From Escherichia coli (GTDB taxonomy: Bacteria > Pseudomonadota > Gammaproteobacteria > Enterobacterales > Enterobacteriaceae): 64,000 bases of DNA. The translations under genes and the position numbers were made by a program. A model generated the notes under the pieces. That model did not search any database. It was not told the origin of the DNA and was given only the letters and a program-made list of their open reading frames with translations. Shown piece by piece: positions 17,488 to 20,771 of the stretch (its first letter is position 1; each line of letters starts with the position of its first letter). The DNA lies in NCBI RefSeq assembly GCF_041886205.1, contig NZ_CP169029.1. One strand, written 5' to 3'.

Positions 17488-19509
17488 TTACGATGCCGCG
17501 ATAAACAGCTCACGCAGCTGATGCAACTGGTCACGAATTTGCGCCGCTTCTTCGAACTCCAGATTCTGCGCGTGTTGCATCATCAACCCTTCCAGCTCAT
17601 GGATTTTCTGCTGCAACGCTTTAGGCGACATATCCATCGGCACATTATCCGGCTCAACAATCGGGCGCGATTTTCCTCTGCCCTTCGCTTTGGTTTTGGC
17701 AATGTTCTGCCCCAGCGCCAGGATATCGACCACTTTCTTGTTCAAGCCTTGCGGCGTAATTCCGTGTTCCTCGTTGTACTTCTGCTGTTTCTCACGGCGA
17801 CGTTCGGTTTCGCCAATCGCTTTCGCCATTGATGGGGTGATCTTATCGCCGTAGAGAATCGCTTTACCGTTAACGTTACGTGCCGCACGACCAATGGTCT
17901 GGATCAACGAACGTTCGGAACGCAGGAAGCCTTCTTTGTCAGCGTCGAGGATCGCCACCAGCGACACTTCCGGCATATCCAGACCTTCGCGCAGTAAGTT
18001 GATCCCTACCAGCACGTCGAACTCACCCAGACGCAAGTCGCGGATAATCTCCATACGTTCGACGGTGTCGATATCTGAGTGAAGATAACGCACGCGCTCG
18101 CCATGTTCTTCGAGATATTCGGTAAGATCTTCCGCCATCCGCTTGGTCAGTGTGGTGACCAGTACGCGTTCGTTAATTGCCGCTCGCTGACGAATCTCCG
18201 AAAGAAGATCATCAACCTGTGTCGCCACCGGCCGCACTTCGATAATCGGGTCAAGCAATCCGGTTGGACGCACCACCTGATCCACCACATCGCCGCCGGA
18301 TTTTTCCAGCTCGTAATTACCCGGCGTCGCCGAAACATAGATGGTTTGCGGCGCTAATGCTTCGAACTCTTCAAACTTAAGCGGACGGTTATCCAGCGCT
18401 GATGGCAGGCGGAAGCCGTACTCCACCAGTGTCTCTTTACGCGCCCGGTCACCGCGATACATGCCGCCAATTTGTGGAATGGTGACGTGAGATTCATCGA
18501 CGACCAGCAGCCCATCGGCAGGCAGGTAATCAAACAGCGTCGGCGGTGGCTCACCCGGTCCACGACCGGAGAGGAAGCGCGAGTAGTTCTCAATCCCGGA
18601 ACAGTAGCCCAGCTCGTTCATCATCTCCAGATCAAACTGGGTACGCTGGGTCAGCCGCTGCTCTTCCAGCAGTTTGTTGTTTTCCAACAGCACTTTGCGT
18701 CTGGCGGCCAGCTCTTCTTTGATCTCCTCCATCGCCTGTACGATGCGCTCGCGCGGTGTGACGTAGTGCGTTTTCGGGTAGATGGTAAAACGTGGAATAG
18801 TGGAAACAATCTGCCCGGTCAGCGGGTCAAATAACGACAATCGTTCCACTTCCTCGTCAAACAGTTCCACGCGAAGTGCAATGTCATCCGATTCTGCCGG
18901 GAAGATATCTATCACCTCGCCACGAACGCGGAAAGTACCACGCTGGAATGCCTGATCATTACGAGCGTATTGCAGCTCCGCCAGTCGGCGCAGAATCGCG
19001 CGCTGATCGATAATCATACCGACCGTGAGATGGAGCATCATCTTGAGATATAAATCAGGATCGCCCAGACCATAAATCGCGGAAACAGACGCCACCACAA
19101 CCACATCACGCCGCTCCAGCATCGCTTTGGTGGCGGACAAACGCATCTGCTCAATATGTTCGTTAACCGAGGCATCTTTCTCAATGAAGGTGTCGGAACT
19201 CGGTACATAGGCTTCCGGCTGATAGTAGTCGTAGTAGGAGACGAAATACTCCACCGCGTTTTCCGGGAAGAACTCTTTCATTTCTCCATACAGCTGGGCC
19301 GCCAGCGTTTTGTTGGGCGCAAGTACCATGGTTGGGCGCTGAAGGTCAGCAATGACATTGGCAATGGTGAAGGTTTTCCCGGAGCCAGTCACGCCAAGTA
19401 ACGTCTGGTGCGCCAGGCCATCTTCCAGCCCCTCTTCGAGACGTCGAATCGCCTCTGGCTGATCGCCAGAAGGTTTAAAAGCGGAATTCAGTTTGAACGG
19501 TTTACTCAT
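17488..19509 (-). CDS. uvrB: excinuclease ABC subunit B
   Basis: 673 aa, helicase motifs ([12 protein letters not shown]), C-terminal UvrC-interaction domain. Confidence 0.95.
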
Positions 19510-19585
19510 GAGTCTCTACCTGAAGGAGTTGGGCGGGCAGGTATGTAATTTTACTCGTCGTACTTAATTATGCCAACAAATTATA

Positions 19586-19601
19586 CTGGATAAAAAAACA
19601 G
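19586..19601 (-). promoter_or_regulatory. LexA (SOS) box of the uvrB promoter
   Basis: CTGTTTTTTTATCCAG on the uvrB strand fits CTGT-N8-ACAG. Confidence 0.75.
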
Positions 19602-20087
19602 TTCATCACCATAATATTTCTGATACAGCGTAAAATCCGCTGTCAATCATGAGCAAAATTTACTCTGTGGCGAGATAAAACTCCGGCCTTACCGGGTTAT
19701 CCCCAAAGCAACGGCTTTTTTAACATTTGTCAAGATGAGTGATGACAGTTTTATGGCAAGAGATGCCTGTTCAGTGACTGCCATTGCATTTATCTAACCA
19801 GTTAAAAAATAAAAGATATTTCATTGAGCCGTCTTTAACGCCAATTCGCGTGCAAGCCGCGTATTCTCTCGCTTGCCTCGTGTTTTCTAACTCTAATACA
19901 CATGGTTATCCACAGGAATAGTGGATAACTGTCTGCAGCCCCTATCCCCCGCCGCCTGGGCAATTCCCACATTCGCCGCATGATGCGGAAGTAAAATTTT
20001 TTTCGTGATTATTTTAGAATTTAATTGGTTAAATTGCAGTCAATCGAAGACGCGATCTCGCTCGCAATTTAACCAAATACAGGATGG

Positions 20088-20771
20088 CTACAACAAGGCA
20101 AGGTTTATGTACTTTCCAGTTGCCGCATTTTCTGGATTTTCTGCAAGCCAGGGGATCTCTCCCAGCAGCGGCGCGGGAATCATGCGGGTGAGCGTGGCCT
20201 TATATTCAGCGTGACGTTTTCCAGGAGGCGTGACATCATTCGCCACCCAACCCGCCAGCGTTAGTCCGGCGTGTTGTATGGCCTGTGCAGTCAACATCGC
20301 GTGATTAATACAGCCGAGTTTCACGCCAACCACCAGTATTACCGGCAGTTGTTCCTGTGTTACCCAATCCGCAAAAGTGAAAGTTTCAGAAAGCGGCGTA
20401 AACCAGCCGCCAGCGCCTTCCACTAACACCCAGTCAGCCTGTTGTTCAAGCGCGCGTAATCCGGCGCTCATTACCAATGATTCTATCGGCCTGCCCTCTT
20501 GCGCGCTGATGATGTGCGGCGAAGTGGGTTCTGCGAAGGTGTAAGGATTTACTGTTGCGTAATCCAGCTGCAGGCTGCTGTTGCGCTGTAACGCCAGCGC
20601 GTCGCTATTGCGTAAACCTTCCGGGGTCTTTTCGCTGCCAGAGGCGACCGGTTTATAACCTGCCGTCCGGTAGCCTGCTGCCTTTGCGGCTTGTAAAAGT
20701 GCACAACTGGCGACAGTTTTCCCCACTTCGGTATCCGTTCCGGTGACAAAATAACGTTTACTCACGAGCAA
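20088..20771 (-). CDS. bioD: dethiobiotin synthetase BioD
   Basis: P-loop [10 protein letters not shown]; true start is probably the GTG two codons inside the track ORF. Confidence 0.9.

Follow-up and report, generated by a model that had tools for sequence, protein, structure and literature searches.

The window (the whole stretch of DNA that was analysed, 64 kb in length) is a piece of the E. coli chromosome, and uvrB and bioD border the spacer under study. Because uvrB is read on the minus strand (Table 1), upstream of uvrB means towards higher window coordinates, and bioD is the upstream neighbour that defines the intergenic region of 578 bp (19510-20087). RefSeq annotates zero features in this spacer. 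An Rfam scan of 19400-20200 with a permissive E-value returned only two meaningless matches to eukaryotic families, far under their gathering scores, and no known RNA family. The earlier note had taken the region for the control region of uvrB and for conserved backbone. The flanking genes, uvrB and bioD, agree with the former description, and the presence of the spacer in 5424 of 5426 complete E. coli genomes agrees with the latter. The copy in strain H15 was 100% identical, and the whole 578 bp was at least 99% identical in only 417 of the 5426 genomes.

Table 1. Features and compared segments of the bioD-uvrB locus in window coordinates; the last line gives example sites from the sample of other species
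Feature	Position	Strand	Sequence or count	Basis
uvrB coding sequence, 673 aa	17488-19509	-		ORF; 100% identical to UvrB WP_000042533.1 in two RefSeq genomes
uvrB promoter, probably P1	19548-19576	-	-35 TTGGCA (19576-19571), 17-nt spacer, -10 TAAAAT (19553-19548)	Consensus scan, 10/12 matches
Hexamer, likely -10 of LexA-controlled P2	19580-19585	-	TATAAT	Read from the sequence; assignment to P2 putative
LexA (SOS) box, 20-mer	19584-19603	-	AACTGTTTTTTTATCCAGTA	Exact match to published box
LexA (SOS) box, 16-mer core	19586-19601	-	CTGTTTTTTTATCCAG	Exact match to published box
Isolated DnaA-box-like 9-mer between P3 and P2	19697-19705	+	TTATCCCCA, 1 mismatch	Box count in spacer
43-bp segment further towards uvrB	19803-19845		Identical in 204/5426 genomes	Comparison with complete E. 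coli genomes
uvrB-proximal flank of DARS1 core, probable regulatory region	19846-19893	-	Includes block GTTAGAAAAC	Conservation; borders putative
43-bp segment, uvrB-side flank	19846-19888		Identical in 5386/5426; 26 more with one mismatch	Comparison with complete E. coli genomes
43-bp segment, core	19889-19931		Identical copy in 5423/5426	Comparison with complete E. coli genomes
DnaA box III	19894-19902	+	TAATACACA, 1 mismatch to TTATNCACA	Same orientation as box II, 3 bp from it
DnaA box II	19906-19914	+	TTATCCACA, perfect consensus	Motif search
DnaA box I, inverted	19920-19928	-	TTATCCACT (plus-strand reading AGTGGATAA), 1 mismatch	5 bp from box II
43-bp segment, bioD-side flank	19932-19974		Identical in 2632/5426; 2745 more with one mismatch	Comparison with complete E. 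coli genomes
bioD coding sequence	20088-20771	-		ORF
DARS-like cores, example sites	L025 2843-2877, L084 2219-2241, L018 5694-5728, L078 1539-1561, L043, L103, L028 5157			Sampled loci L003-L122

The LexA box and the promoters of uvrB

An SOS box had been proposed in front of uvrB, and the window carries a 20-mer identical to the published uvrB SOS box AACTGTTTTTTTATCCAGTA (PMC6015884), located 92 bp before the uvrB ATG. The inner 16-mer CTGTTTTTTTATCCAG fits the CTG-N10-CAG palindrome with an AT-rich centre, 9 of its 10 central bases being A or T. The bare skeleton CTGT-N8-CCAG is not rare, as two copies were found in the window against 1.22 expected, and the identification therefore rests on the match to the published 20-mer, on the position and on conservation in the Enterobacterales. 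Among the listed loci of other species, all five other Enterobacterales in which uvrB was complete, as well as one Vibrio, had a CTG-N10-CAG box 56-112 bp ahead of the uvrB ATG. Binding of LexA to this site (LexA-box1) has been published as tight for the identical sequence, and a DNase I footprint of LexA is likewise available for a sequence identical to the window box (PMC6015884).

The LexA box directly abuts a TATAAT hexamer and thus overlaps a core promoter of uvrB. This hexamer is likely the -10 element of the LexA-controlled P2; in the published map LexA-box1 lies between the -35 and the -10 of uvrBp2, and P1 is placed downstream of the LexA box (PMC6015884). We infer from the order of these elements that the TTGGCA-17-TAAAAT promoter is P1. 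A LexA dimer on the CTG-N10-CAG box would keep P2 off, and RecA-stimulated cleavage of LexA after DNA damage would free it. P1, which adjoins P2, would supply the basal expression.

Alignment to the map of P1, P2 and P3, which had been suggested as a check, gave agreeing positions. As in the described P1-P2-P3 cluster of uvrB (Sancar 1982; van den Berg 1985; Wurihan 2018, PMC6015884), the identical LexA 20-mer lies inside P2 and the DnaA boxes lie within the P3-active fragment, and we found no difference from that cluster. The activity of P3 is carried by a fragment from -567 to -280 (PMC6015884). With the P1 start at about 19541, this fragment corresponds to about 19821-20108 and includes the DnaA-box cluster that is identified below as DARS1. 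The boxes are located about 365-390 bp upstream of the P1 start and about 300 bp upstream of the LexA box. A consensus promoter scan and a search by eye at the DnaA boxes revealed no convincing -35 and -10 hexamers of P3, and this promoter is placed here by the literature only.

The isolated DnaA-box-like 9-mer TTATCCCCA between P3 and P2, with a single mismatch, is a possible minor DnaA site; extra candidate boxes between P2 and P3 have been proposed before (PMC6015884). A terminator-like hairpin on the uvrB-sense strand (19683-19705; CCGGTAAGGCCGG followed by AGTTTTATCT) directly abuts this 9-mer and lies between DARS1/P3 and P2. Its fold of -13.5 kcal/mol (z = -1.49) is not exceptional. The hairpin could halt or attenuate P3 transcripts ahead of uvrB.

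Three DnaA boxes and their identity with DARS1

Far upstream of the LexA box the spacer contains three 9-bp DnaA boxes, here called I, II and III, with 1, 0 and 1 mismatches to the consensus TTATNCACA, respectively. Box I is opposite to boxes II and III, so that I and II stand head-to-head. The spacer between I and II is the 5-bp GGAAT (19915-19919) and that between II and III is the 3-bp TGG (19903-19905). Single boxes are not above chance in the 64-kb window, in which TTATNCACA was found 4 times against 2.06 expected. The arrangements are much rarer: the inverted pair TTATNCACA-N5-TGTGNATAA with up to two mismatches gave one match in the window against 0.03 expected, and the direct pair of II and III at 3 bp also gave one match against 0.03. 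Within the 578-bp spacer, boxes with at most one mismatch numbered 4 against 0.72 expected, a count that was reached in 2 of 500 shuffles. Boxes with two mismatches (10 against 7.4 expected) were not above chance in the spacer and were therefore left out of the list of parts; the further DnaA and LexA boxes put forward in PMC6015884 were, by count in the spacer, not above chance either.

The earlier note had recognised an inverted pair of DnaA-box-like sequences, which is the pair counted above. It named GTGGATAAC as the inverted member, and this sequence is present at 19921-19929 as half of a perfect palindrome, GTTATCCAC / GTGGATAAC, whose 9-bp arms are separated by 7 nt; the canonical partner box, however, is AGTGGATAA at 19920-19928. 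The end that had been given to the region, 19915, was thus too short, as the inverted partner extends to 19928 or 19929.

A second perfect DnaA box TTATCCACA occurs in the window at 34384-34392. It is a lone box with no partner at 2-5 bp, and the AT-rich patch around it lies inside or borders a 491-aa ORF (33497-34972, minus strand). Lone consensus DnaA boxes are mostly unbound in vivo (PMC11317965).

The layout I-5-II-3-III is the core of DARS1 (DnaA-reactivating sequence 1). A DARS core is described as three boxes of which I is opposite to II at a distance of 5 bp (PMC6868365). At DARS1, box II is the only complete match to the consensus (PMC6868365, PMC11724364) and the others have one mismatch each (PMC11724364). 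The spacing is equal at DARS1 and DARS2, and DARS1 is an intergenic element of 101 bp at 17.5 min (PMC5742627). The string given for DARS1 in Table 1 of the DnaA ChIP-seq study of MG1655, cTAATACACAtggTTATCCACAg, located upstream of uvrB under a 16-fold peak (PMC11317965), occurs verbatim as a 23-mer at 19893-19915 of the window. The location also agrees, since the boxes lie between bioD and uvrB and within the fragment that is active as P3.

The K-12 element (Fujimitsu et al. 2009, described in PMC6868365, PMC5742627, PMC4585315) has the same flanking genes, boxes, 5- and 3-bp spacings and uvrB-side flank, with no substantive difference from the window. The spacer differed from that of a K-12-like strain at 6 of 578 positions. 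One of the differences is a C for G at 19934, 5 bp outside box I, and the other five lie elsewhere in the spacer; none of the six falls in the LexA box, the three DnaA boxes, the P1 and P2 hexamers or the uvrB-side flank of the core, and the interval 19846-19931 is free of differences. DARS1 consists of the core and of about 50 bp of flanking DNA beside the last box, and this flank enhances ADP release in vitro (PMC4585315, PMC5742627). Full activity requires the three boxes together with this flank, and their conservation has been described for 59 genomes (PMC4585315). In the window, the conserved interval 19846-19893 is the probable regulatory region of DARS1.

The relatives of this element place it among known systems. 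DARS2 of E. coli, upstream of mutH, has the same layout of III-3-II-5-inverted I, and reads TTCTTCACA-act-CTATCCACA-gaaaa-GGTGAATAA in the K-12-like genome (L123 23495-23529). Box III points towards mutH at DARS2, at a distance of 492 bp, and towards uvrB at DARS1, at 384 bp. All boxes of DARS2 are imperfect (TTCTTCACA, CTATCCACA, TTATTCACC), whereas box II of DARS1 is perfect. DARS2 is the stronger of the two in vivo and depends on IHF and Fis sites within a regulatory region of about 400 bp; for DARS1, no accessory proteins are required in vitro (PMC5742627, PMC11724364). Enrichment in ChIP-seq was modest at DARS1, 16-fold, compared to 78- to 213-fold at DARS2 (PMC11317965). The ColE1 plasmid carries a DARS of 70 bp with three boxes, the first DARS described, which is plasmid-borne and is likened to DARS1 by description only; two correctly oriented boxes are essential in it (PMC5835720). 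The 'double DnaA box' operators of nrdA, polA, purH and mioC (PMC11317965) have a same-orientation 3-bp pair like III and II but not the inverted third box by which a DARS core is defined. Such a same-orientation 3-bp pair is the best predictor of DnaA binding in vivo (PMC11317965).

The mutH-rppH spacer of the K-12-like genome holds a second cluster (L123 23180-23220), CTTACACCA-tg-TTATCCACA-gaaag-CTGGGATAA. Here a perfect box has one neighbour in the same orientation, 2 bp away, and an inverted but degenerate partner 5 bp away; the cluster corresponds to the second DARS2 site seen by ChIP-seq (PMC11317965).

We are confident that the bioD-uvrB spacer comprises two separate, well-characterised protein-binding modules, the LexA operator and DARS1. 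The element between bioD and uvrB is strongly conserved and already known, being the same locus as DARS1 of K-12, and the SOS box of uvrB, the DnaA boxes at P3 and DARS1 are all textbook biology of E. coli. The SOS box reportedly dates from 1982 (Sancar), and DARS1 is said to have been described in 2009 by Fujimitsu et al. The corrections to the first reading, namely the name of the cluster, its main function and the missed third box, are useful.

Conservation within E. coli and in other species

We compared 43-bp segments of the spacer against 5426 complete E. coli genomes (Table 1). According to the segment counts, the core and its uvrB-side flank form an island of near-invariance, and this fits the published need for the boxes and the flank (PMC4585315). 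The low count of the segment further towards uvrB arises because the window has a rare allele at 19823. At this position the window has T and the K-12-like strain has A (on the uvrB-sense strand, CAATGAAAT versus CAAAGAAAT). It is a minority allele in no obvious functional site, and may be useful as a lineage marker.

For the wider comparison, 100,044 species genomes were searched with TTATCCACA-N6-GTGGATAA, which gave at least 120 loci as an arbitrary sample. Because the pattern demanded both boxes I and II, their invariance across species is not independent evidence; box III, the spacers, the position and the orientation are. About 15-16 of the matches listed lay beside uvrB and/or bioD. They came from E. 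albertii, Citrobacter, two Enterobacter, Superficieibacter, Photorhabdus, Providencia and one uncultured member of the Enterobacterales and, outside this order, from two Vibrio, two Shewanella, two Pseudoalteromonas and Aliidiomarina. In all listed loci linked to uvrB or bioD, a TGTGnAnnA box was found exactly 3 bp past box II, and box III was always on the side towards uvrB. The distance from the core to the uvrB ATG was 352-433 bp in most of the listed loci and 587 bp in one Shewanella; it was 1.8-3.3 kb in Pseudoalteromonas and Aliidiomarina, with other DNA between. The flank GTTAGAAAAC...GCGAGAGAATACGCGGCTTGC was also kept across the Enterobacterales among the listed loci. Some of the listed species have the core upstream of uvrB even though the gene upstream of it is other than bioD.

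These results bear on the idea that the motifs are chance matches in an AT-rich spacer. Taken singly, the motifs are indeed not rare, as the counts of 4 against 2.06 for TTATNCACA and of 2 against 1.22 for CTGT-N8-CCAG indicate. However, each of the paired arrangements was expected only 0.03 times, 5423 of 5426 genomes share an identical core whereas the flanks are variable, the arrangement is conserved beside uvrB across orders, and the sites match experimentally characterised ones exactly. The probability of a chance origin is in our view practically negligible.

The inverted repeat GTTATCCAC / GTGGATAAC could also be regarded as an RNA hairpin, either a terminator or a stabilising 3' stem-loop of read-through from bioBFCD, in which the likeness to DnaA boxes would be incidental. 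A terminator scan did flag it on the minus strand, with a 9-bp stem, a 7-nt loop and the tail CATGTGTATT, and its fold has -16.5 kcal/mol (z = -2.95). However, only 4 of the pairs in the stem are G-C, and a clean U-run is missing from the tail. Both arms fit the DnaA consensus, and the third box is outside the stem at a fixed spacing in about 15-16 listed species. DnaA binding has been published in vitro and in vivo (PMC6015884, PMC11317965). The core is present upstream of uvrB also at listed loci where the upstream gene is not bioD, and compensatory changes in the arms that would break the DnaA consensus and keep the pairing were not seen. A hairpin or terminator as the main function was rejected on account of the outlying box III, the consensus match of the arms and the published binding of DnaA; we consider it highly improbable, and the repeat is read here as part of the DARS1 core.

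Another inverted repeat lies 9 bp past the bioD stop (20022-20079); its 16-nt arms are 94% complementary, with 26 nt between them. The fold on the bioD-sense RNA has -20.9 kcal/mol (z = -4.18), with no shuffle as good, and the A/U-rich tail behind it lacks a clean U-run. The repeat may be the 3' stem-loop or terminator of the bioBFCD transcript.

Function of DARS1 and DARS-like cores near repair genes

The best-documented role of DARS1 is the nucleotide exchange of DnaA for the control of replication, not the regulation of uvrB. For the identical K-12 sequence, loss of ADP by ADP-DnaA and regeneration of ATP-DnaA have been published (PMC6868365, PMC5742627). In the proposed mechanism, ADP-DnaA would first occupy box II, and further protomers would be recruited to box I in head-to-head and to box III in head-to-tail orientation. 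The head-to-head contact of the protomers on I and II, through Gln208 of DnaA, would then open the nucleotide pocket and let ADP out; such a contact on boxes I and II is reported to drive the release of ADP (PMC6868365). Apo-DnaA would leave the site and rebind ATP, and this would enlarge the pool of initiation-competent ATP-DnaA. Occupancy by DnaA would also repress the weak distal promoter P3, since the latter overlaps these boxes. Sequence identity, layout, spacing, location and conservation are findings of the present analysis. Binding, ADP release and the effects on promoters are carried over from experiments in K-12 on the basis of sequence identity, and very probably apply to the window copy as well.

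Binding of DnaA at a uvrB promoter, to which the earlier note had referred, is borne out by the footprints and the repression of P3 (PMC6015884) and by the ChIP-seq peak (PMC11317965). The footprinting data that it named as a check are available too, as protection of DARS1 by DnaA against DNase I has been published (PMC6015884). Its reading of the boxes as elements of uvrB control is right as far as it goes, but incomplete, because the third box was missed and the cluster is DARS1.

This leads to the question of whether the boxes are, as the earlier note implied, an operator only, which would control the distal promoter P3 of uvrB and play no role in nucleotide exchange. DnaA footprints the site, and a TG-to-CA change in the central box (box 6) raised P3-lacZ 5.9-fold; according to the authors, P3 'completely overlaps' DARS1 (PMC6015884). 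The first reports of DnaA boxes upstream of uvrB date from 1985-86 and were made in the context of an operator. However, the head-to-head pair at a fixed distance of 5 bp defines a DARS, ADP release in vitro depends on it, and DARS2 shows this layout as well. For an operator, the inverted box and the conserved flank would be superfluous. In addition, deletion of DARS1 lowers the origin concentration, to a mild extent (origins per mass of about 0.8), with a fitness cost in LB and in the mouse gut (PMC4585315). A role as operator only is thus very unlikely, and it is this exclusive form that we reject; the roles of the boxes as a P3 operator and as DARS1 are compatible.

The search of other species gave a further lead. 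Among the at least 120 loci matched, 86 sites had the full layout I-5-II-3-III, and the neighbour of each site was called as the first ORF with its 5' end facing the site, followed by a Pfam scan. On the side of box III, the listed loci had UvrB in 9 cases, XseA in 4 and MutS in 1. On the side of box I they had PriA in 15-16 cases, always on this side, a DUF1232 protein in 7 (Pseudomonas) and UvrC in 2. About 38 of the 86 listed sites adjoined a gene for DNA repair or replication restart, including incomplete uvrB/bioD loci, and the gene differed by clade. Among the matches listed, uvrB was the neighbour in Enterobacterales, Vibrionales and Alteromonadales; priA in Xanthomonadales, Burkholderiales and other gammaproteobacteria, with Xanthomonas, Luteimonas, Stenotrophomonas, Oxalobacteraceae, Cycloclasticus and MAGs among the matches; xseA in Neisseriaceae, Nitrosomonas and MAGs; uvrC in Acetobacteraceae; and mutS in Conchiformibius (Neisseriaceae). 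The identical core TTATCCACACAAATTGTGGATAACCTTGTGAACAG was found beside the DUF1232 gene in 7-9 Pseudomonas species among the matches listed. The layout of the DARS core was thus widespread in Gamma-, Beta- and some Alphaproteobacteria in the matches listed, and mutH at DARS2 of E. coli fits the pattern of repair genes.

It is possible that the link between DARS1 and uvrB is one case of a wider and older pairing and not a quirk of E. coli, an idea suggested by the neighbouring genes that we hold to be rather doubtful. The pairing with repair genes is a lead and not a result, because the sample was arbitrary, the lineages are not independent and the ORF calls were crude. In the literature that we searched, the conservation of DARS is described only among relatives of E. 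coli. This limited search found no DARS-type elements outside these relatives, nor beside priA, xseA or uvrC, which is not proof of novelty.

Legionella had many near-identical three-box cores of the form TTATCCACAAAATCTGTGGATAA-N3-TGTG[TA]A[TAG][AC]G. There were at least 6 sites in L. rowbothamii (L087-L091) and at least 9 in L. nagasakiensis (L105-L111), two of the latter being on a single locus at distances of about 1.3 kb and 2.6 kb. Their neighbours included a HhH-GPD glycosylase and the 3' end of recG. These cores may represent several titration sites of the DARS/datA type or else a small repeat element.

For the present window, the value of the finding lies in the correct annotation. 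The spacer holds one of the three non-coding loci (datA, DARS1 and DARS2) that set the ATP/ADP state of DnaA and hence the timing of initiation, and besides it a classic SOS operator. A deletion or engineered change in the spacer affects both the control of replication and the expression of uvrB. If the cores in other species are functional elements of the DARS type, the recycling of DnaA or the sensing of its state would be coupled to promoters of repair genes as a general feature of proteobacteria. Such a coupling, if confirmed, would bear on how the initiation of replication is coordinated with DNA repair.
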